This document shows positions 24,461-35,017 of a stretch of DNA of 64,000 nt, piece by piece. Positions within the stretch are counted from its first letter, which is position 1. Each line of letters starts with the position of its first letter. Under the pieces are notes generated by a model, which saw only the letters and a list, made by a program, of their open reading frames with translations, had not been told where the DNA came from and did not search any database. The DNA is from Clostridiaceae bacterium (GTDB lineage: Bacteria > Bacillota > Clostridia > Saccharofermentanales > DTU023), in contig DUOO01000056.1 of NCBI GenBank assembly GCA_012838795.1, positions 84,119 to 148,118 of the forward strand, given 5' to 3'. The position numbers and the translations under genes were made by a program.

Positions 24461-25765
24461 TTATAGCAAATATTGACGTTTAACGGTACCTTCACGGACC
24501 TTGAAAAAGTTGATATATGAGCGGTTTAAGTTGCTTTCGAGATTATGTTCGTTTTCTTTTTCAATATTTTCCATATCGGATGAATTTTGTTTATCTGACA
24601 ATTTCTTTTTATATTCCGGATAAATTTGTCCCAAGTCGGTACAAGTAATAAAAACTTGATTGTCTTCAAATGCAGAAAGCAAATGAGTTCTTCTTTTAGC
24701 ATCTAATTCAGACATAACATCATCTAAAAGAAGAACCGGTTTTTGATTAGTTTCCTTTTCAATAATTTGTAATTCAGCTAATTTTAAAGCCAAGACAGCT
24801 GACCTTTGTTGCCCTTGTGAACCACGTTCTTTGAGCAAATTATCATCAACAATTAATTCAAGATCGTCTCGATGTGAGCCGCTTCCTGTACTTCCTCGTT
24901 CGATATCATCGTCCAGTTGGCGTTCAAAACGTTGCATTAAACTATCATAAATCTGATTTGAATCAAGTTTCGGGTCTATTCCGGAAACTGTTTTATAATT
25001 AATTTTAAATTTTTCTTTTCCGTCAGAAATTTTCTCTAAAGCTTCAATTGCATATTTCTCTATTTCTAAAATATATTTATATCTTGTACTGATAATCTGT
25101 GCTGATATTTTGGCTAAATGTTCAGTCCAAATTGTCAATTGTAATAAATTAAATTTATAGATTTCAGAATCATAAACATCACTATTCTTTTTTTTATCAA
25201 ATTTCATATTTCTCAGTGTTTTTAATAAGTTATTTCTTTGTTTGAGATATTGTTGATAAAGCTGCAAATTTCTAAAATATAACGGTTTAATTTGCGAGAT
25301 TAAAAGATCCAGAAAACGTCTTCTCCCTGCAGGACCTTCCTTAATTAACATTACGTCTTCCGGAGCAAAAATAACTGCATGAAAAAGACCGATCAGATCA
25401 CTAATTCTTTCCTGCTTGAAACCGCAATAATAAATATTTCTTTCAATCATCGGAAATTTTTTGTATTCAATTTTAATTTCTTCAATAAACGGCTTACTCT
25501 CATGAAATGATTGTTTAATGTTTTGTTCTGCATTATCCGACTCAAATTGGATTTCAACCTGATAATAATCAGCACCGTCTTTTATTAAATCATTATCTTT
25601 TCCGGTACGATGAGAACGGGCACAAGTACACAAATAAATTGCCTCAAGTATATTTGTCTTACCTTGGGCATTTTCTCCGACAAATACGTTTGTTCCTGAA
25701 GCAATTTCAATAGTTTGTTCCGTATAGTTACGAAAGTTTTTCAATTTTATTTGTTTAACTTTCAT
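24461..25765 (-). CDS. recF: DNA replication and repair protein RecF
   Basis: 434 aa. LKNFRNY and Walker A GENAQGKTN, signature region SQGQQRS, LLLDDVMSELD. Confidence 0.9.
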   Translation of the reverse strand: MKVKQIKLKNFRNYTEQTIEIASGTNVFVGENAQGKTNILEAIYLCTCARSHRTGKDNDLIKDGADYYQVEIQFESDNAEQNIKQSFHESKPFIEEIKIEYKKFPMIERNIYYCGFKQERISDLIGLFHAVIFAPEDVMLIKEGPAGRRRFLDLLISQIKPLYFRNLQLYQQYLKQRNNLLKTLRNMKFDKKKNSDVYDSEIYKFNLLQLTIWTEHLAKISAQIISTRYKYILEIEKYAIEALEKISDGKEKFKINYKTVSGIDPKLDSNQIYDSLMQRFERQLDDDIERGSTGSGSHRDDLELIVDDNLLKERGSQGQQRSAVLALKLAELQIIEKETNQKPVLLLDDVMSELDAKRRTHLLSAFEDNQVFITCTDLGQIYPEYKKKLSDKQNSSDMENIEKENEHNLESNLNRSYINFFKVREGTVKRQYLL

Positions 25766-25834: not shown

Positions 25835-26938
25835 TTACCTGCGTAAGGGGAGTACCAGATATAAGAATTGTTCTCCTTCCACAGGTTTAATTAAACAAGG
25901 CCCGAATGTCCCGGAAAATTCAAGGTATATATTCTCTACCGGAATATTACGCAAAGCATCCAAAAAATATTTTGGGTTATAGTCCGCATCTATATTTTCA
26001 CCCTCTAAATCGATTGAAATTTCTTCGTGTACCTCTCCTAAATCGGTTTGAGATGAAATTACCAGTGTTTCTTTATCCGTATTTTCCACAGTTACCGGGA
26101 ATCGTCTTTGTTCAACATTTATAACTAATGATGCTCGATCAATTGCATTTAACATGTCTTTTGTTCTTAATTTAATTTGACTCATCACTTCATTCGGAAC
26201 AACTTTATTATAGTCCATATATTCGCCTTGTAACAATCTGGAAACAAGTTTTACTGAACCTGTGTCAAACAATATGTGATTATGTGAAGGATATATTTTA
26301 ACCGGATTATCAGTCGGATCTAAAATTCCCGATACTTCTTGCATTGCTTTTGCCGGCACGATAAAAGACATGGCGGGTAATTCTTCTCTAAATTCTTCAC
26401 GCCTTATAGCTAAACGAAAACCGTCTATGGCAATTAATTCAAGCCTGTTATTATCAGCAACAACTTTAATTCCATTTAGAATAGGTCTGTTTTCATCTGA
26501 ACTGGCTGCAAAAATTGTTTGACCAATCATTTCTTTTAAGACTCTTTGAGAAACTTGCATTTTTTCAGCTTCTTCAACAATCGGAATTTTCGGATAATCA
26601 GTTGCTTCAATTCCTTTAATCTTAAATTGAGCTTTTCCACTGGTTATCTTAATTATATAATTCGTTTCTACTTCGATATTTACAATTTCTTCCGGCAATT
26701 TACGAACTATATCGCCGATCATTTTTGCGTTTAATACTACTTTTCCGGGAATTATTACATCTGTATCTATTTTACATTCAATTCCGGTTTCCAAATCATA
26801 TCCGGTAATCGTTAAAGTATCACTTTCTGCTTCGAATAACAAACCATCAAGAATAGACAAAGTAGAACGGGTAGCAATAGCCTTTTGCGCCATTGAAATT
26901 GCATCATTTAATAAATTTTTTGAGCAGATAAGTTTCAT
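25835..26938 (-). CDS. dnaN: DNA polymerase III beta sliding clamp
   Basis: 367 aa, typical DnaN sequence, position directly after dnaA. Confidence 0.95.
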   Translation of the reverse strand: MKLICSKNLLNDAISMAQKAIATRSTLSILDGLLFEAESDTLTITGYDLETGIECKIDTDVIIPGKVVLNAKMIGDIVRKLPEEIVNIEVETNYIIKITSGKAQFKIKGIEATDYPKIPIVEEAEKMQVSQRVLKEMIGQTIFAASSDENRPILNGIKVVADNNRLELIAIDGFRLAIRREEFREELPAMSFIVPAKAMQEVSGILDPTDNPVKIYPSHNHILFDTGSVKLVSRLLQGEYMDYNKVVPNEVMSQIKLRTKDMLNAIDRASLVINVEQRRFPVTVENTDKETLVISSQTDLGEVHEEISIDLEGENIDADYNPKYFLDALRNIPVENIYLEFSGTFGPCLIKPVEGEQFLYLVLPLRR

Positions 26939-27292
26939 ATACCTTCCTTTCTGATAAACTGTTTTTCAACAAGTTTAGTTATTGTTTAACAAAGTTGTTA
27001 ATGTTTATAAAATTTTCAAATTATAAATCGTAGTTTCTTTAATAAATAATATTATACTATTTACTTAATTAGTATTCATCCTCTTATTATATACTGTTGA
27101 TTATGTTAATAATCAACGATAAGCTCTGATATATAAAGCTATTTTGATGTAAAAAACTCTGTTAACAGTTTGCCTATAACTTTTTTGTTTTTAACATGAT
27201 TAACATTCAAATTTTTGTTAACAATTTAATGATGTTTTTTAACACCCGGTTTTTCACAATTGATAATAATTTTGTGAATTTAAAAAATAAGA
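26939..27292. other. dnaA-dnaN intergenic region: predicted second half of a bipartite oriC
   Basis: 354-bp AT-rich spacer. TGTTAATAA 27104. TGTTAAC 27160 and 27216. TGTTAATGT 26996. TTTTTAACA 27188 and 27236. One TTWTNCACA-type box, TTTTTCACA, at 27250-27258. Confidence 0.6.
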
Positions 27293-28639
27293 TTAAATAG
27301 GAGAAAGACGTAAATTAATCTCTTTAATTGAATTTTCCAATTCTGTATTATTATCTAATTCTTCTTTTACACGATCGCAAGCATGCATAACAGTAGCATG
27401 ATTTTTGTTACCGAAATCAATACCGATATCTTTGTATGTCATATTAAGTAAACTACGACAAAGATACATGGAAATTTGACGTGGTTGAACAATATCCTGA
27501 CTGCGTTTTTTGGATTTTAAATCATCCACGGTTACATTAAAATAATTGGCAGTTACATTCATAATTAATTCAGAACTTAAACTTTTAACCGAACGAGGAT
27601 CAATCTGATCTTTTAAGGCATTTCTGGTAGAAGCGAGATTGATACCGCCGCCGAGCATCGAATAAGCATAAATTGTTTTGAAAGCACCTTCAAGTTCACG
27701 AATATTGGAAGAAATGTGAGATGCAATGTAATCAAATACCTCATCCGGCCAATCAACATGATGTGCCTGAGCCAATTGAAGTAAAATAGCAATTCTCGTT
27801 TCATAATCAGGAGGATTGATATCAATTGTAATGCCACTGGAAAAACGGGTTTTCAATCTTTCTTCAAGAGTAATTAAAGATTGTGGCGGTTTATCACAAG
27901 TCATTACAATATTTTTTCCGGCTTCATATAAAGCATTAAATGTATGGAAAAATTCCTCTTGCATTCTTTCTTTATTTTCTAAAAATTGAACATCATCAAT
28001 CAGCAATAAATCCGTCATTCGATATTTATTGCGAAATGGTTCGAATTCTTTTAGCCGAATAGCCTCAATAAATTCATTAATAAAATTTTCGGAATTAACA
28101 TAAATTACATTCTTATCGGGAAAAACATCTTGGACATGGTTTCCGATTGCATGCATTAAATGAGTTTTGCCTAGACCTGAACCGCCGTAAAGGAATAAGG
28201 GATTATAGTTATTACTGTTTTGTAAAGACGCAACCGCAACACAAGCAGCATGAGCAAAGCGATTTCCTGAACCAACAACAAACGAATCAAATGTATAAGC
28301 AGGATTTAATACATCATTTGAAATATAAGATGCCTCTTCATCCTCTTTAGTTAAAATGTTTTGTTTAAGATTATTTAAATTATCTTTAGCATTAATTTCA
28401 ACTTTTACATCAAAAGTTTTTTGTGTAGCAAGTTTCAGAGCGGTACGAATCATCTCTTTGTATTGAACTACAAAATCGCGTGATATTTCATTCGGTACAG
28501 ACAAAACAAAAGTATCATCATTATATAGCATGGGAGTGATCGGTTTTAACCAAGTTGTATATGTGAGAGTAGGAACTTCTTTTTCCAGATAATCTTGACA
28601 TACATTTTGCCAAATAATATGAGCACTTTGTTCTTGCAT
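27293..28639 (-). CDS. dnaA: Chromosomal replication initiator DnaA
   Basis: 448 aa. AAA+ Walker A GGSGLGKTH, domain IV present. SD GAGGGGGG. Confidence 0.97.
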   Translation of the reverse strand: MQEQSAHIIWQNVCQDYLEKEVPTLTYTTWLKPITPMLYNDDTFVLSVPNEISRDFVVQYKEMIRTALKLATQKTFDVKVEINAKDNLNNLKQNILTKEDEEASYISNDVLNPAYTFDSFVVGSGNRFAHAACVAVASLQNSNNYNPLFLYGGSGLGKTHLMHAIGNHVQDVFPDKNVIYVNSENFINEFIEAIRLKEFEPFRNKYRMTDLLLIDDVQFLENKERMQEEFFHTFNALYEAGKNIVMTCDKPPQSLITLEERLKTRFSSGITIDINPPDYETRIAILLQLAQAHHVDWPDEVFDYIASHISSNIRELEGAFKTIYAYSMLGGGINLASTRNALKDQIDPRSVKSLSSELIMNVTANYFNVTVDDLKSKKRSQDIVQPRQISMYLCRSLLNMTYKDIGIDFGNKNHATVMHACDRVKEELDNNTELENSIKEINLRLSPI

Positions 28640-28957
28640 ATATCCCCCCTCTTTTCTTAATTGTTAAACTATACTAACAGAAAAAAACTGTAGGTAAAAG
28701 TTGTAATAATACAGAAGAAATGCAATAAATATCATTTTTTTCAACAATATGGATTATATAATCAAATGTTAATAGTGTTAATAACTTGGATAATAATTGA
28801 ATAATTCAAGTAAAAATCATGCGATAAATGTTAATAAGTATATGAAATAATGTTAATAACTTTATGAATATTATAAATATAGTTTTTTTTAATATTATAT
28901 AATTATTTTATAAATAAATTTCAATAGCAAATAGTCTATGTTAACGAGTTGAGTTTT
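28640..28957. other. dnaA-upstream region: predicted oriC box cluster plus an AT-rich candidate unwinding element
   Basis: Same-orientation 9-mers: TGTTAAACT 28662, TGTTAATAG 28767, TGTTAATAA 28776, 28829 and 28851, TGTTAACGA 28939. An almost pure A/T stretch lies at about 28861-28935. Confidence 0.65.
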
Positions 28958-29620
28958 TCATCCTTTTTCATGTTTTAATTTTGCCAAAATGTAGTTGAAT
29001 TTTTCGATCTTATTTCTAAATAATTTCAAATCAAAATTTGTTTCAACATCTTTTAATAAATTCTCAGCCTGGTCAATTTCTTTTTGTAATAAATCTTTTT
29101 GTTCCGAGGTAAGAGTATTATAATCAGTTAAATGTTTAATCAGAGCATTGATTCGTTTTCTCAGATTAATGACATGAGAAATCACTATTCTGTCTTGAAA
29201 AAGTTCGTGAATGAGTTCATTAAAAGTAAAATTATAATTATTTTCGGTAGCAACTGCTTTTAAAGGAAATCTCGGAAAATTTTCATCTCGAATATGTTCT
29301 AAGAGATGTTCGACTTGATTTCGTGAAAACCCGGAAAAAAACAAAAGATTTTCTGATTTTTGATTTTCACTGCGAGAAGTTTTTTGAAGAGGAATTAAAT
29401 TTTGATTATTACTTTTCTCTAAACGCTCTGTTACTTGAGAAATTCTTAATGAAAAATCACCACTTTTGATCAGATAAAAAGGGATTTCTTGAAGGTTTAA
29501 AAAACTTAAAAAACGATCTCTTTTATCTGAATCTGTTATTTCTTCTTCGGAAAAATAAACTATCAGTCCAAAAGGTGTTTTGAAAATAGGTTTGTCTGTC
29601 TTAACTTCTTGATCTGCCAA
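28958..29620 (-). CDS. DUF3783-like domain protein with a coiled-coil C-terminal half
   Basis: 220 aa. TTG start 9 nt after GGAAGGAG. LLFFSGFSRNQVEHLLEHIRDENFPRFPLKAVATENNYNFTFNELIHEL resembles DUF3783 (from memory). Confidence 0.5.
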   Translation of the reverse strand: MADQEVKTDKPIFKTPFGLIVYFSEEEITDSDKRDRFLSFLNLQEIPFYLIKSGDFSLRISQVTERLEKSNNQNLIPLQKTSRSENQKSENLLFFSGFSRNQVEHLLEHIRDENFPRFPLKAVATENNYNFTFNELIHELFQDRIVISHVINLRKRINALIKHLTDYNTLTSEQKDLLQKEIDQAENLLKDVETNFDLKLFRNKIEKFNYILAKLKHEKG

Positions 29621-29644
29621 AAAATAAAACTCCTTCCGGAATAA

Positions 29645-31282
29645 TTATAGAAGAGTAGAGAATATACGCATAAAAGCTTCGATTGCTTTTTGTTTCAGAG
29701 GACGTTGTTGCCAAGTTTCCAAATCCATCAGTTCGCAATCCTTAAAAATATCGAGCAAGTCAACATAAATATCTCTCAGAACGGGATTACCGCAAATATA
29801 TACTGAATTTTCAAAATGCAAATGAAAACTGCGAAAATCAAAATTTACACAACCGGTAATTGCATGAAAATCATCGGCGATTACAGTTTTGCCATGGATG
29901 AAACCGGGAGAATATTGAAAAACTTTAACTCCTCCCTCCATTAACTTGGCATAATTTGATTGTGTAACAACGTAAGCGTACCATTTGTCCGGAATACCCG
30001 GTGTAATTATCCTGACATCAACACCTGATTTTGCCGCACGACAAAGATCGGAAATCATAGAATCGTCAACAATAAAATAAGGTGTACAAATATAAAGATA
30101 GTCTTTTGCATTATTGATCATTGAACGATAAATATCTTCTGCCGGATTGTTAAGATTATTTAACGGACTGTCCCAATAAGGGATAAAATAACCTTCGGCA
30201 TTTTGGTAATATTCTGCACGCGGCATATATTTTCCATAATCATTTTCCTGAATATTGCTTTCAAATTCCCACATTATGAGAAACATCGTAGTCAAACCTC
30301 TTACAGCATCACCTTCAAGACGAATTGCCGAGTCTTTCCAATGACCGAAACGAGGATACAAATTAGCATATTCATCAGCTAAATTGGTGCCACCTGTATA
30401 AGCGAGATTTCCGTCAATAATACAGCATTTTTGATGATTGCGATAATTAATATAGAGTTTGGAAATATAACGTACAACCGGATTAAAATTATATACTTTT
30501 ACTCCATTGGAGCGGAGTTTCTTGATAACATCATTCGGTGCTTTGATAATACTTCCGAAATCATCAAATAACAAACGGACATCGACCCCTTCATGTGCTT
30601 TTTGAATCAGAATATTTTCAACTTCCTGCCAGATTACACCATCCGCCAAGATAAAATATTCCATAAAGATAAAGTCTTTTGCTTTGCGCAAATCTTCGAA
30701 CATTTGAACAAATTTGTCTTCGCCTAAGGAAAAGTATTGACAAACGGTATTTTGATAAACAGGGAATCCCGAATTGTATAAAAATGTAGCAAACAACTTG
30801 CTTTCAGGATAATCGAGTATCAAATTATTCAATAATTGAGGATTAACTACAAGATGTTTATTGATTCGATTTTCTATTTCTGAAAATTTAATTTTTTCTT
30901 TTTTAAATCTGGAGCGCCTGCCCCATAACAAAAAAATGCTTAATCCTGCAACGGGAACTGCCAGGATCAAAATTGCCCAAGCAAGAACATATGAAGAGTT
31001 GCGATCTTGATGAATTACAAAAAGTACAAAAATCAAACTGATAACCTGAAGTCCCAAATAAATCCAAAAAGCAGATTTACTCAGGTATACGGCAATTAAT
31101 ACGTTTATTATAATAATTGCAATAAGCAAGAAAAGAACAAATCCAAGTCTGATCATTCCGGGAATTTTAATTTTATACGCTCTATTATCAACTCTTGATT
31201 TTAACGATTTTAAGAAAGTGTTTTTACTTTTGTTGCTTTTTTTCTTCTTTTTTTTCTTTTTCTGATTAATGTTATCTTCCAT
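29645..31282 (-). CDS. cls: Cardiolipin synthase (PLD superfamily, two HKD motifs)
   Basis: 545 aa. HQKCCIIDG and HGKTVIADD. Two N-terminal TM helices. The lysine-rich N-terminus makes the start uncertain. Confidence 0.9.
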   Translation of the reverse strand: MEDNINQKKKKKKKKSNKSKNTFLKSLKSRVDNRAYKIKIPGMIRLGFVLFLLIAIIIINVLIAVYLSKSAFWIYLGLQVISLIFVLFVIHQDRNSSYVLAWAILILAVPVAGLSIFLLWGRRSRFKKEKIKFSEIENRINKHLVVNPQLLNNLILDYPESKLFATFLYNSGFPVYQNTVCQYFSLGEDKFVQMFEDLRKAKDFIFMEYFILADGVIWQEVENILIQKAHEGVDVRLLFDDFGSIIKAPNDVIKKLRSNGVKVYNFNPVVRYISKLYINYRNHQKCCIIDGNLAYTGGTNLADEYANLYPRFGHWKDSAIRLEGDAVRGLTTMFLIMWEFESNIQENDYGKYMPRAEYYQNAEGYFIPYWDSPLNNLNNPAEDIYRSMINNAKDYLYICTPYFIVDDSMISDLCRAAKSGVDVRIITPGIPDKWYAYVVTQSNYAKLMEGGVKVFQYSPGFIHGKTVIADDFHAITGCVNFDFRSFHLHFENSVYICGNPVLRDIYVDLLDIFKDCELMDLETWQQRPLKQKAIEAFMRIFSTLL

Positions 31283-31418
31283 TCAATATACTTTCTGATT
31301 TTCAGAATTTTATACAGCTTCCGGAGCTGTTTTATTTATTAAATCGGCTATATTTTAGCATATGTTTTAATATAATCGAATCTGATTATATAATATTATA
31401 GGTTTAGGAGGTATATTT

Positions 31419-31796
31419 ATGGATTTAGATTTAAGAATGGCACACATGAACATTAACACAATGGATTTGGAAAAAGCAGATAAATTTTATCGAGAGAATC
31501 TCGGATTAAAAGAAGTTCGGAGAAAAGAAGCAAAAGACGGAAGTTATATCATCGTATATTACTGCGATGCGAATGATTTTTTTGAGTTGGAAATAACTTG
31601 GTTGCGTGATCGTAAAGAACCATATGATTTAGACGATAATGAAATTCATCTCTGTTTTAGAACTGCAGACTATGATAATACGTTAGCTTTTCACCGAGAA
31701 CAAGGTGTAGTTGTTTTTGAAAATGAAGGCATGGGCGTATATTTCATTGAAGATCCTGACGGATACTGGATCGAAATTGCACCGTACCGGGATTAA
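31419..31796 (+). CDS. VOC/glyoxalase-family protein (lactoylglutathione-lyase-like)
   Basis: 125 aa. HMNINTMDLEKADKFY..., C-terminal FIEDPDGYWIEI. SD AGGAGG. Confidence 0.8.
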   Translation: MDLDLRMAHMNINTMDLEKADKFYRENLGLKEVRRKEAKDGSYIIVYYCDANDFFELEITWLRDRKEPYDLDDNEIHLCFRTADYDNTLAFHREQGVVVFENEGMGVYFIEDPDGYWIEIAPYRD

Positions 31797-31803
31797 TAAG
31801 AAA

Positions 31804-32655
31804 TTATTTTTGGCAGTGGGGGCAAAAATGGGTACTGCGGCCGGCAACTTTGATTTTTTCGATTGTAGTACCACAAGCAAGACAAGGATCACCATCTTTT
31901 TGATAAACGGCAAGATGTAATTGGAAAAAACCTTTATTGCCCAATCCGTCAACATAATCACGAAAAGAAGTTCCGCGATGTCCGATTGCTTCAGTAAGTA
32001 CTTCGCGGACTTTTTGATGCAATAATGTAATTTTAGCATGAGATAATTCTCCGGCTTTACGTTCGGGAAAAATTCCTGCACGAAATAAACTCTCATCGGC
32101 ATAAATATTGCCGATTCCGGCAATTGCTTTCTGATTCAATAAAACACCTTTAATCGAACTTTTTCCATATCTTTTACAAGTATTGATCAAGTAATCGATG
32201 GTGAAATCGTCTCCTAAAGGCTCAGGTCCGAGTGTTGCAAAACCGCAGTCGTTAAATTCTTGGCCCGGAGGAAATAAGGTAACTCTGCCGAAGCGTCTTG
32301 TATCATTGAAATCAAGACTTCCGCCATTACTCAAAACAAAACGCACATGAGTATGTTTTGCCGGCTCAACTATTTTTTCTTCCAGTAAAAGTTTTCCGGT
32401 CATTCTCAGATGGACCATCATGACACAATAATCTCGGGCGGCAGGCTTCGGGTTACATATTATGTCTTTTTGCAAATCGAATAACAGGTATTTTCCACGT
32501 CGACGTATGTCCTTGATTAACCAATTATCTAAAGAGATACCATCGGGATTAACTAAAACATCAGGATGATAACAAATAATTTCTTCAATGACTTGATTTT
32601 GAATTTTTTCGATAAGAGTTCTGCGTATTGTTTCTACTTCGGGCAATTCGGGCAT
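31804..32655 (-). CDS. mutM: Formamidopyrimidine-DNA glycosylase
   Basis: 283 aa. N-terminal MPELPEVE. C-terminal zinc finger CLACG...CPHCQ. Confidence 0.92.
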   Translation of the reverse strand: MPELPEVETIRRTLIEKIQNQVIEEIICYHPDVLVNPDGISLDNWLIKDIRRRGKYLLFDLQKDIICNPKPAARDYCVMMVHLRMTGKLLLEEKIVEPAKHTHVRFVLSNGGSLDFNDTRRFGRVTLFPPGQEFNDCGFATLGPEPLGDDFTIDYLINTCKRYGKSSIKGVLLNQKAIAGIGNIYADESLFRAGIFPERKAGELSHAKITLLHQKVREVLTEAIGHRGTSFRDYVDGLGNKGFFQLHLAVYQKDGDPCLACGTTIEKIKVAGRSTHFCPHCQK

Positions 32656-32656
32656 T

Positions 32657-34756
32657 TTAATTCTGTCTTTCTAAATCTTCAATCCACAATTTGACAACTG
32701 CATCACTGGGCATAACAAAGCCCTGTCGGGGAGATAATGCTATTTGGCTGATAATCGGTCCGTCCGGTGAAGCAGAACGTTTGAACTGATTCGCAAAGAA
32801 ACGTTTATAAAAGAGCTTCAGCCATTTAATGATAGTTGCCCGGTCATACTTGTTGCCAAAAGTTTGCCCGGCGATAAAAAGAATTTTGCGTGGAGCAAAT
32901 TGATAACGAATAAAATAATACAGGAATAAATCATGCAATTCATATGGTCCGATAAGATGCTCGGTTTGTTGAGCGATCTTGCCTTGCTCCGGAGGCAAAA
33001 GCTCGGGGCTGACCGGAGTTGCCAAAATATCGAATAAAATTTTGGCAAGATTTTCGCTTTGTTGTTCTTGCTTCGAACGAAAATTCTCTGCCATATAATT
33101 TTTCGCTTCATATTCTATTAAATGACGTACTAAAGTTTTTGGGATACCGGCATTGATATGGTACATGGACATGTGGTCACCGGAATAGGTGACAAAACCT
33201 AGAGCTGATTCTGACAGATCTCCGGTTCCCAGTACGATTCCGCCTCTTTGGTTCGCTAAATCCATCAAAATTTGAGTTCTCTCACGAGCTTGAGCATTTT
33301 CATAAGTAACATCATGCAAATTCGGGTCATGATTGATATCTTTGAAATGTTGTTCTGCTGCAGCGGTGATCGAAATCTCCAGATAGCTTGTATTACAGGC
33401 ATCTGCTAAATTTTTTGCGTTGTTATATGTTCTGCCGGTTGTTCCGAATCCGGGCATACTTACACAGAGAATGTTCTGATTGCTTTTTTTGAGAAATTTT
33501 TGAGTACGGACTGCAATTAACAATGCAAGCGTACTGTCCAGTCCGCCGGACAATCCCAGGATAACCTGCGGATTGTTAATATGTTCAAGTCTTTTACGCA
33601 AGCCTTGTGCAGCCATATTCAATACCGAATCAAAATACGCCTTATGCAGTTTACTGTCTTCAGGCAAAAATGGATTCTCGGAAAATTTGCGGTAGAGATC
33701 GGCATTCCTATCAGGCTCAGAAGTTAATCCGTAATGCATAGTATTTTTGTTTGGTTTGAAACTTTTATTTGCTGCCGGAGATAATCCGGTTGGCTTAGTA
33801 ATATAATCCAAATCCAAACAAATAATCGGATCGTGATTGAAGCGGGCTGAGGATTTTACGTGATTGGAGTTGATCGGATGATTTTTACTGTAAGTTACAT
33901 TTCGGTCTGTTGAATAATTTGAATTTGTTATGATTTGCAAGTCAAGATCACCGATCATTAAATCCGATTCATAAAGCTTCGTTGCTGCAAGCAGACAATC
34001 TTGTTCAAAAATATAACCTCGTCCGGCATAAATATGATCCGTTGTGGATTCACCATAGCCGGGACTTAAATAAACCAATCCGGATTGCGATAATTGAGCA
34101 AAAGCACGGAGATATTTTTCGGTACCGGTTTGATTTTCTATTAACTCAGGAGAAGACGACATAACAACATTAATATTTGGTATAAAAGCTTTATTTGAAT
34201 GGTTTTTATATAAATCTTCAATGCTTTGGTAAATCCCCAAACTGAAATTTATACCGGAAATTTTGCTTTTTAAGAAAAACACACTCTCAGATTTCATCAT
34301 AAGATATTCACCGGTTGGTTCAGTAATTAATTCGTCTCCGGAAGCAAAATATTTACTTAAAGCAGAGGATTTACCTGCAGGCACCATAATCTTAATTGCC
34401 GTATTCCGATTTAAAAAATATAAGACTTTAACTAATTTGCCGTTCAGCTTTTCCGGAATCGTCATAAGAATATTCAAATTAGATTGATTAGATTGTGCCA
34501 ACACCTCTTTAATTTTTCCCAAGGCAGATTTGGCTTTTTCAAGCAGAATGCCTTGTTTGAACAAATCTTGGCAGGTGACTCCGGTTAGAGAAAAATCCGG
34601 AAAAACCAAAAGATCAATTTGCTCCTGTTCAGCCAATCTTATCAATTGGAGGTGTTCAGTCAGATTAAAATCAACATCGGCAACCTTTATTTCCGGAGTA
34701 GCGCCTGCTACTCGAAAATAGCCTAATTTTTTAGAATTGATAATAGTATTATTCAT
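32657..34756 (-). CDS. nadE: Glutamine-dependent NAD+ synthetase (CN-hydrolase plus NAD-synthase domains)
   Basis: SGGLDS PP-loop motif, N-terminal nitrilase-like domain. I place the start at ATG 34756 (MNNTIINSKKLGYFRV...), 6 nt after GGGAG. The track's extra 60 aa are AT-rich read-through. Confidence 0.85.
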   Translation of the reverse strand: MNNTIINSKKLGYFRVAGATPEIKVADVDFNLTEHLQLIRLAEQEQIDLLVFPDFSLTGVTCQDLFKQGILLEKAKSALGKIKEVLAQSNQSNLNILMTIPEKLNGKLVKVLYFLNRNTAIKIMVPAGKSSALSKYFASGDELITEPTGEYLMMKSESVFFLKSKISGINFSLGIYQSIEDLYKNHSNKAFIPNINVVMSSSPELIENQTGTEKYLRAFAQLSQSGLVYLSPGYGESTTDHIYAGRGYIFEQDCLLAATKLYESDLMIGDLDLQIITNSNYSTDRNVTYSKNHPINSNHVKSSARFNHDPIICLDLDYITKPTGLSPAANKSFKPNKNTMHYGLTSEPDRNADLYRKFSENPFLPEDSKLHKAYFDSVLNMAAQGLRKRLEHINNPQVILGLSGGLDSTLALLIAVRTQKFLKKSNQNILCVSMPGFGTTGRTYNNAKNLADACNTSYLEISITAAAEQHFKDINHDPNLHDVTYENAQARERTQILMDLANQRGGIVLGTGDLSESALGFVTYSGDHMSMYHINAGIPKTLVRHLIEYEAKNYMAENFRSKQEQQSENLAKILFDILATPVSPELLPPEQGKIAQQTEHLIGPYELHDLFLYYFIRYQFAPRKILFIAGQTFGNKYDRATIIKWLKLFYKRFFANQFKRSASPDGPIISQIALSPRQGFVMPSDAVVKLWIEDLERQN

Positions 34757-35017
34757 GGCATACTCCCGCTTACAGTCATATAAATAGATTATAACGCATA
34801 ATGGGTTTTTGTTGTAAAACAACTCAAATAATGAATGATTGAGTGATCGATACATATAAATTATTTTGTTAAATGTTTTTAATATTGAATTGTTTGTTAT
34901 AATAAATATATATAAAACCAATGAAATATCAAGCAAGCGGCATGATATAAACTCTGTAAAGATTTACATACAACAAGAACTTAACCTGTGAATAAAACCC
35001 GAAGAGAGTGAAATAGA

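Follow-up and report, generated by a model that had tools for sequence, protein, structure and literature searches.

Variant DnaA boxes on both sides of dnaA in a Clostridiaceae genome: a probable bipartite replication origin

The spacer upstream of dnaA (positions 28640-28957) in a 64,000-nucleotide stretch of DNA from a Clostridiaceae bacterium (contig DUOO01000056.1 of assembly GCA_012838795.1; hereafter the window) is probably, at a likelihood that we put near 0.75, the dnaA-upstream half of a bipartite replication origin of the Bacillota type together with the control region of dnaA, in which variant DnaA boxes are accompanied by matching changes in the DnaA protein. Such an origin would be of a common kind, with a twist particular to the lineage, and the box variant is already known.

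The proposed arrangement has two parts. Upstream of dnaA, four same-oriented (AG)TTATTAACA sites would be laid out as box, 22 bp, box, 53 bp, box, box. The dnaA-dnaN spacer would supply the other half, with about nine more sites that end in a tandem pair of TTATTAACA and TAATCAACA, then a conserved block and an AT-rich stretch, and DnaA oligomers would most likely open the duplex at this dnaA-dnaN module. A DNA-reading helix with the residues N-H-A-T in place of D-H-T-T, presumably also without P423, would tolerate or prefer A at box position 6, and strong AT pressure (spacers of this genome have about 20% G+C) may have driven nearly all boxes to TTWT(T/C)AACA.

Boxes upstream of dnaA

On the minus strand of the window, a Pfam domain scan gives the gene order dnaA (27293-28639), dnaN (25835-26938), a recF-like gene and gyrB, so that the spacer 28640-28957 lies beside the adjacent dnaA and dnaN genes that serve as indicators of the chromosomal origin (oriC). 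GC skew is negative to the left of the locus and positive to the right, the change of sign expected at oriC. A first-pass annotation of the window had proposed cumulative GC skew as a check, and the minimum, a flat trough at 27-35 kb (resolution about +/-4 kb; 64 kb of genome), takes in the dnaA locus.

The same annotation had described the spacer as an origin region built from six same-orientation 9-mers: TGTTAAACT at 28662, TGTTAATAG at 28767, TGTTAATAA at 28776, 28829 and 28851, and TGTTAACGA at 28939. All six are present at these positions, and the core hexamer TGTTAA occurs six times in the spacer, each time on the plus strand. As boxes, the four at 28767, 28776, 28829 and 28851 hold up. 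Those at 28662 and 28939 are not conserved; they share only the TTAACA core and have two mismatches each to TTWTTAACA.

Six copies of TGTTAA in 318 bp compare with 0.65 expected, a count reached by 0 of 2000 composition-matched shuffles. The dnaA-dnaN spacer (26939-27292) holds 10 (0.65 expected), and the average over the window is 1.14 per kb. Exact TTATTAACA occurs six times in the window against 1.74 expected, three times in 28640-28957 and once in the dnaA-dnaN spacer. The pattern TTWTNMACA, that is, TTWT[N][A/C]ACA, is found four times upstream of dnaA (0.28 expected) and six times between dnaA and dnaN (0.23 expected); each of the 17 other spacers that reach 150 bp contains 0-1, many of them being equally AT-rich and some having 21-27% G+C. 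Eight of the 19 matches to TTWTYAACA in the 64 kb fall within the 672 bp of the two dnaA-flanking spacers. Equal frequency of the motif in any AT-rich intergenic DNA had been named as grounds for abandoning the origin assignment; enrichment, established here by computation, is instead confined to the two spacers beside dnaA.

How far these sites depart from a standard box depends on the consensus used. In the accepted consensus TTWTNCACA, position 5 is already N (PMC5043019, PMC7561715), and the two-position difference first proposed (CC to TA) therefore shrinks to one, C to A at position 6. The conserved sites, which read TTATTAACA, lack the C at position 6 and the CACA 3' end of the canonical box. 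Among the 13 matches to TTWTNNACA in the two flanks, positions 5-6 are TA in eight, CA in two, and TT, AA and TC in one each, and the single exact match to TTWTNCACA in either spacer is TTTTTCACA at 27250-27258. The reported absence of TTATCCACA is borne out, there being none with at most one mismatch in either dnaA-flanking spacer, and the 9-mer named as the closest, CTTGGATAA, is present at 28785-28793. The criterion of Mackiewicz, as quoted in PMC7561715, asks for at least three DnaA boxes less than 100 bp apart. With the variant TTWT[N][A/C]ACA such clusters are found (four boxes in 318 bp, six in 354 bp); with TTATCCACA and up to one mismatch the count is 0 in both spacers.

Conservation was followed in two sister species, L001 (82% DnaA identity) and L084 (79% identity). 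In the alignment with L001, the islands of identity in the upstream spacer are the boxes with their flanks: AGTTATTAACATTA, TTATTAACATTT and AAGTTATTAACA(C/T)TATT(A/C)ACAT. Start-to-start distances between boxes are 22/53/9 bp in the window and 22/52/9 bp in L001, with the same layout in L084; the 22 bp between boxes A and B (Table 1) are common to all three. Three further loci, L081-L083, are strain copies identical save for one difference in T-run length in L081, and add no information because they are so nearly identical. From location, enrichment and this computed conservation, these four upstream 9-mers are a real, conserved and non-random candidate DnaA-box cluster, and we infer that DnaA binds them. 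The assignment of an origin to this spacer thus stands insofar as it is dnaA-linked and carries TTATTAACA-type boxes on all computational tests; it falls short in that the spacer would be only half of a bipartite origin.

The dnaA-dnaN spacer and duplex unwinding

About nine further putative sites lie between dnaA and dnaN. At the orthologous positions L001 has TTATTCACA, TTTTTCACA, TTATCAACA or CTTTCCACA, where the window has TTGTTAACA, TT(G/T)TTAACA, TGATTAACA, TTTTTAACA or CTGTTAACA. Because L001 has canonical-type boxes at these positions, the variant sites can be tied to canonical-type boxes, and C and A evidently interchange at position 6 between the two species despite the same DnaA helix. 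Two of the sites, TTGTTAACAA (27215-27224) and CTGTTAACAG (27159-27168), form perfect palindromes of 10 bp. The box core that results from A at position 6, TGTTAACA, is self-reverse-complementary, so that a site could be read either way.

The basal unwinding system described for bacteria begins with a forward box or a pair of them and continues, after a spacer no longer than 16 bp, with at least three A-centred triplets on the strand that has its 3' end towards the box (PMC8287927). No canonical DnaA-trio array follows the boxes in either spacer on either strand; the outgroups L010 and L013 have a canonical (CTA)n array. What follows in this clade is a box, usually a tandem pair, then 3-5 nt and a block resembling ATAATAAGAAGA(G/T)G, an arrangement present, with variation, in 16 of 16 clade loci (box-plus-block position compared in the window, L001-L006, L084-L093, L164 and L165) and more loosely recognisable as to the block in L164, a relative whose DnaA has D-H-T-T. 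In the window the tandem boxes and a 3-4 bp spacer are present, and the A-centred periodicity of the conserved block is on the opposite strand. The block was also considered as a dnaN promoter and rejected, since its -10-like CATAAT/TATAAT has no usable -35 at 16-19 bp; as a leader with a very short open reading frame it was likewise discarded, ATG/GTG plus 3-6 codons being found in some species and absent in L004 and L006.

Two AT-rich tracts lie beside boxes, 28861-28935 (8% G+C) and 27000-27056 (about 12%), and neither stands out enough for an assignment in a genome so AT-rich. The first had been proposed as the unwinding element. Its composition is as described; as an unwinding element it is a weaker candidate than the dnaA-dnaN module, because it lies 5' of the forward boxes and has no clear counterpart in relatives, the GC-richer L002, L004, L088 and L092 showing by inspection no clear AT tract beside their boxes. 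Unwinding is thus more likely at the tandem-box module, which is preferred also because B. subtilis and C. difficile unwind in the dnaA-dnaN spacer (PMC7561715). Rfam scans gave no match in either dnaA-flanking spacer.

DnaA helix 5 and box position 6

The recognition helix of the window's DnaA aligns without gaps to that of B. subtilis DnaA (8btg), FGNKNHATVMHA versus FGGRDHTTVIHA. In E. coli numbering, D433 is replaced by N and T435 by A, and R399, H434 and H439 are kept. P423 is presumably K here, a less certain assignment from our own manual alignment to the E. coli sequence. The base-specific residues of DnaA are R399, P423, D433, H434, T435 and H439 (PMC2533591, PMC7561715), and this canonical domain IV set is incomplete in the window's protein. 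Within the box, TnCACA is the portion read by the helix of residues 434-451 (PMC5742627); the dyad D433-H434 (printed as 'HD') is highly conserved, and position 435 is mostly threonine in Proteobacteria and Actinobacteria (PMC5043019). Among the 120 closest DnaA homologues 44 have N-H-A-T and 73 D-H-T-T, and all full-length proteins within the closest 23 have N-H-A-T.

The relation between helix and box was examined in about 150 loci overall: a first set of 80 genome loci, classed by the four helix residues, in which TTWT-NN-ACA was counted 450 bp upstream and 400 bp downstream of dnaA, and an independent second set of 80 metagenome loci. Pooled and taken as a share of A plus C, the frequency of A at position 6 of the box is 0.22 for D-H-T-T (0.13 in spacers of 38-55% G+C), 0.67 for N-H-A-T (0.66), 0.95 for T-H-A-T (0.94), 0.00 for D-H-G-T (0.00) and 0.54 for D-H-S-T (0.23). 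The association of signature and box was generated on the first set (Fisher p = 2e-7) and repeated on the second (p = 4e-6), so that their co-occurrence is itself a computed observation. In an unbiased 9-mer count, the top word in 17 (N/T)-H-A-T loci of the Planctomycetes-Verrucomicrobia-Chlamydiae (PVC) group is TTATTAACA (11 of 17), and the top words in 37 D-H-T-T loci are TTTTCCACA and TTATCCACA. Nine further clade members have TTATTAACA in every case and TTATCAACA in seven, even with spacers of 39-52% G+C. The word TTGTTAACA also recurs in 9 of the 17 PVC loci.

On a domain III tree the N-H-A-T Bacillota clade lies far from the PVC clade, so the signature arose separately in the two; D-H-T-T and D-H-S-T sisters (L003, L005) stand beside the Bacillota clade, and D-H-G-T loci are nested in PVC. 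We infer a change in DnaA specificity from this pattern. In its strongest form, (N/T)-H-A-T in helix 5 would be a convergent specificity switch with at least two origins, one in a Bacillota clade related to Fastidiosipila and Mageeibacillus and one in PVC, that prefers TTAT(C/T)AACA over TTATCCACA; in addition, the canonical trio array would have been replaced in the same Bacillota group, D-H-T-T members included, by an element like that of E. coli, with ATAATAAGAAGA in the top strand and a bound strand rich in T. This combined proposal is tentative, and we would give it somewhat worse than even odds.

Several observations count against the origin assignment or against the switch. The trough in the skew is wide and reaches its minimum at 31.4 kb, and the fork would meet the five genes upstream of dnaA head-on. 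On the expected strand the tandem-box module has two A-centred triplets (3'-TAT TAT-5'), fewer than the three of a DnaA-trio array. The Fisher tests ignore shared ancestry, and the independent transitions number about 2-3. L002 and L165 have N-H-A-T and mostly CC boxes, and the D-H-T-T relative L164 has TTATCAACA followed by TCATTAACA at the tandem module. D-H-S-T loci are intermediate, those with canonical trios using TTATTAACA or TTTTAAACA. DnaAs with H-Y-(S/T)-T keep TTATCCACA, and therefore variation in helix 5 does not map simply onto box sequence. The published modules of Clostridium tetani and C. botulinum use TTATTAACA (PMC8287927; comparison of modules alone).

A rule from protein signature to box is thus not absolute. 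The safest reading is that N-H-A-T would relax or shift the preference at position 6 and that AT pressure in this genome would have done the rest. Among the H-Y-(S/T)-T loci, L009, L010, L013 and L029 (Peptostreptococcales or Family XIII-like) have TTATCCACA boxes and a textbook module of tandem boxes and CTACTACTATTACTACTA. With such DnaAs in view, the claim that the helix-5 residues are conserved in all Firmicutes is too broad.

Alternative explanations

The most serious alternative is that the upstream cluster serves solely as an operator through which DnaA autoregulates the dnaA promoter, and that the dnaA-dnaN spacer alone is the functional origin. DnaA boxes upstream of dnaA autoregulate the gene in model bacteria. 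Here the cluster lies about 90-180 bp upstream of an extended -10 element (TGTTAGTAT) that is probably the dnaA promoter: the sequence TTTCTG(T/G)TA(G/A)nAT upstream of dnaA is kept in most clade members (the window, L001, L002, L085, L088, L092, L004 and L084), and the 9-mer at 28662 is directly 3' of it, about where the transcript would start. Moreover, the best sigma-70-like match, TTAACA-17-TATAAT (28781..28753; 11 of 12 positions), has its first hexamer in box C, and both the tandem-box module and most of the boxes are in the dnaA-dnaN spacer. As the dnaA promoter, however, TTAACA-17-TATAAT was rejected, since L001 does not conserve it and most of the clade does keep the extended -10 TGTTAGTAT; that TTAACA-17-TATAAT is not conserved in L001 also counts against the operator. 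The roles of operator and origin are in any case compatible, and the upstream clusters of B. subtilis and C. difficile belong to bipartite origins whose melting in vitro needs both halves (PMC7561715). We consider an operator without an origin function unlikely.

Much less probable still is that the repeats are sites of another DNA-binding protein, or -35-like TTAACA hexamers piling up in AT-rich DNA. TTAACA is one base off TTGACA, and several sigma-70-like matches use it; the total of promoter-like matches, 16 against 15.2 in shuffles, is no higher than expected. The conserved unit, however, is the 11-mer AGTTATTAACA and not a hexamer, and seven of nine positions agree with the DnaA box. The orthologous sites in L001 are TTATTCACA and TTTTTCACA; the motif occurs in both orientations and only around dnaA, and it recurs around dnaA in unrelated PVC bacteria with spacers of 41-54% G+C.

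That the motif is a chance product of low-complexity sequence, as the 19% G+C of the spacer might suggest, is refuted by the shuffles, by the 0-1 motifs in each of 17 other spacers (some with 21-27% G+C) and by the sequence and spacing kept across species.

Features of the locus

The features discussed here are listed in Table 1. An exact match to the window's DnaA protein is found in metagenome assemblies only; its nearest named relatives are an uncultured 'Mageeibacillus sp.' (82% identity) and genomes labelled Fastidiosipila (about 50%), which places the organism among the uncultured Clostridia of that group. The gene in the recF position (24461-25765, minus strand) encodes 434 amino acids, longer than a typical RecF of about 370, and matches SMC_N, AAA_23 and AAA_15 and not a RecF-specific model. 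Upstream of dnaA (28958-34936) are DUF3783, PLD/cardiolipin-synthase-like, fpg and NAD-synthase-like genes, all co-oriented with dnaA and therefore head-on to a fork leaving the dnaA locus; rpmH and rnpA are absent from this interval. Gene strand switches at an 81-bp spacer (34937-35017), which holds a lone TTATTCACA at 34987-34995.

Table 1. Positions of genes, putative boxes and other elements at the dnaA locus of the window
Feature	Coordinates	Strand	Remarks
Clade-conserved -10 element, TGTTAGTAT (extended -10; probable dnaA promoter)	28671..28679	-	clade conservation; promoter function predicted
TCGTTAACA, sixth 9-mer of the first-pass annotation	28939..28947	-	11 bp past DUF3783 stop; no L001 counterpart; probably no functional box
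AT tract, 8% G+C	28861..28935	.	first proposed unwinding element; 5' of forward boxes
Box A, TTATTAACA (5' flank AAAG)	28851..28859	-	identical including flanks in L001; one mismatch (AATTAACA) in L084
Box B, TTATTAACA	28829..28837	-	exact; kept in L001 and L084; with box A in 20-nt direct repeat D7
Box C, TTATTAACA (5' flank AAG), first of tandem pair	28776..28784	-	AAGTTATTAACA identical in L001
Box D, CTATTAACA, abuts box C	28767..28775	-	orthologous site TTATTCACA in L001, TTATTAACA in L084
Possible opposite-orientation box, TTTTCAACA	28738..28746	+	weak: not a box in L001
AGTTTAACA, first 9-mer of the first-pass annotation	28662..28670	-	L001 has AGATGAACT there; not conserved as box
dnaA, 448 aa	27293..28639	-	Pfam DnaA_N, Bac_DnaA, Bac_DnaA_C; E = 1e-114 vs B. 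subtilis DnaA
dnaA codons 413-416, N-H-A-T	27392..27403	-	DNA-reading helix; equals E. coli D433-H434-T435-T436
AAATTCACA	27273..27281	-	L001 orthologue TTATTCACA
TTTTTCACA, sole exact TTWTNCACA match	27250..27258	+	L001 orthologue TTATTCACA
TTTTTAACA box	27236..27244	+	L001 orthologue TTATCAACA
TTGTTAACAA, palindrome of two overlapping opposed boxes	27215..27224	.	L001 orthologue TTATTCACA
Tandem TTTTTAACA and TGATTAACA	27188..27205	+	L001 orthologues: TTTTTCACA twice
CTGTTAACAG palindrome	27159..27168	.	L001 orthologue CTTTCCACA
Tandem boxes TTATTAACA and TAATCAACA	27095..27112	-	proposed unwinding nucleation site; tandem pair here in most of 16 clade loci
Clade-conserved block TATAATAAGAGGATGAATACTAATTAAG...	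27057..27091	-	3 nt after tandem boxes; consensus ATAATAAGAAGA(G/T)G
AT-rich stretch, about 12% G+C	27000..27056	.	follows conserved block; alternative unwinding candidate; placed relative to tandem boxes as in B. subtilis and C. difficile (PMC7561715)
dnaN	25835..26938	-	three DNA_pol3_beta domains

Implications

To origin finders and DnaA-regulon scans that rely on the E. coli box, the dnaA locus described here would seem to lack a box cluster, and in genomes of the clade these programs could misplace the origin or the module for unwinding. A possible example is the nominally related cultured species Clostridiales genomosp. BVAB3 UPII9-5, which we take to be Mageeibacillus indolicus. If BVAB3 also uses boxes with A at position 6 around dnaA, the module predicted for it may be a false call; that module, at 96.8 kb, has a lone perfect TTATCCACA as its box and only three triplets (PMC8287927). 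If the helix-5 signature predicts the box, it would offer a cheap choice of motif for thousands of uncultured genomes, and N-H-A-T and D-H-T-T, if the relation is true, would be a natural pair of variants with which to dissect how DnaA reads positions 5-6. With a true specificity switch, DnaA boxes could be predicted from the protein by a simple rule that links residue to base. The absence of a trio array matters for the generality of the Bacillota unwinding model, and if an E. coli-like element did replace the array, single strands would be held in a different way within the Bacillota.

Comparison with known systems

In the literature searched, we found neither the origin of this clade nor the N-H-A-T signature, nor any connection of that signature with position 6, and no list of box motifs is given in the supplements to the paper on Ori-Finder 2022. 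The general layout is familiar. As in B. subtilis (incA/B-dnaA-incC) and Clostridioides difficile (oriC1/oriC2), clusters of boxes flank dnaA, with dnaN downstream (PMC7561715), and a tandem pair of boxes sits beside an AT-rich stretch in the dnaA-dnaN spacer. Unlike in those two species, position 6 is A and not C, rpmH and rnpA are not upstream, the helix is N-H-A-T and not D-H-T-T, and the canonical (CTA)n DnaA-trio array gives way to a block rich in purines, ATAATAAGAGG; the B. subtilis module consists of TTATCCACA, AATCCACA, GGCC and CTACTATTACTTCTACTA, in this order (PMC8287927, table).

The conserved block also resembles the reverse complement of the R 13-mer of E. coli (CTAATAAGAGATC), and in its T-rich strand is found TTATT, a sequence on which the binding of E. 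coli DnaA to single strands depends (PMC5742627). As with the R1 box and R 13-mer, the strand beside the forward box can be compared directly, CTAATAAGAGATC in E. coli and ATAATAAGAGGATG here. The likeness extends over about 9-10 bases and could be coincidence; unlike in E. coli oriC, the spacer is 3-4 and not 10 bp, and there are no GATC sites.

A precedent for a lineage-specific box preference attributed to the start of helix 5 (residues 432-439) is found in Helicobacter pylori and Arcobacter (PMC5043019). In the Epsilonproteobacteria position 5 is strictly T and the C at position 6 is kept, and residues 435, 438 and 439 vary while D433-H434 is retained (PMC5043019); here, by contrast, D433 itself is replaced and position 6 has changed.

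The variant box has been seen elsewhere. For Mycoplasma hominis, M. arthritidis and M. mobile, TTATTAACA is on record as a putative DnaA box (PMC2751442); as here, the identical 9-mer lies upstream of dnaA and was called on sequence grounds. Those mycoplasmas have a single copy or two, with the dnaA-dnaN interval free of them, unlike the four conserved upstream sites and about nine downstream in the window. In the table of predicted unwinding modules, TTATTAACA appears 61 times, and the published module of Akkermansia muciniphila uses it as well (PMC8287927). The same paper lists as 'standard' two motifs with A at position 6, TTTTCAACA in a Chlamydiae row and TTATCAACA in a Bacteroidetes row, its divergent motifs being taken from DoriC. 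The modules of C. tetani and C. botulinum read TTATTAACA, AATCAACA, GCCC and CTACTA... (CTACTACTA...) in succession (PMC8287927). Long canonical trio arrays follow the boxes in those Clostridium modules, unlike in this clade; the sequence and layout of the tandem pair are the same, and A at position 6 is an accepted lineage variant in that table.

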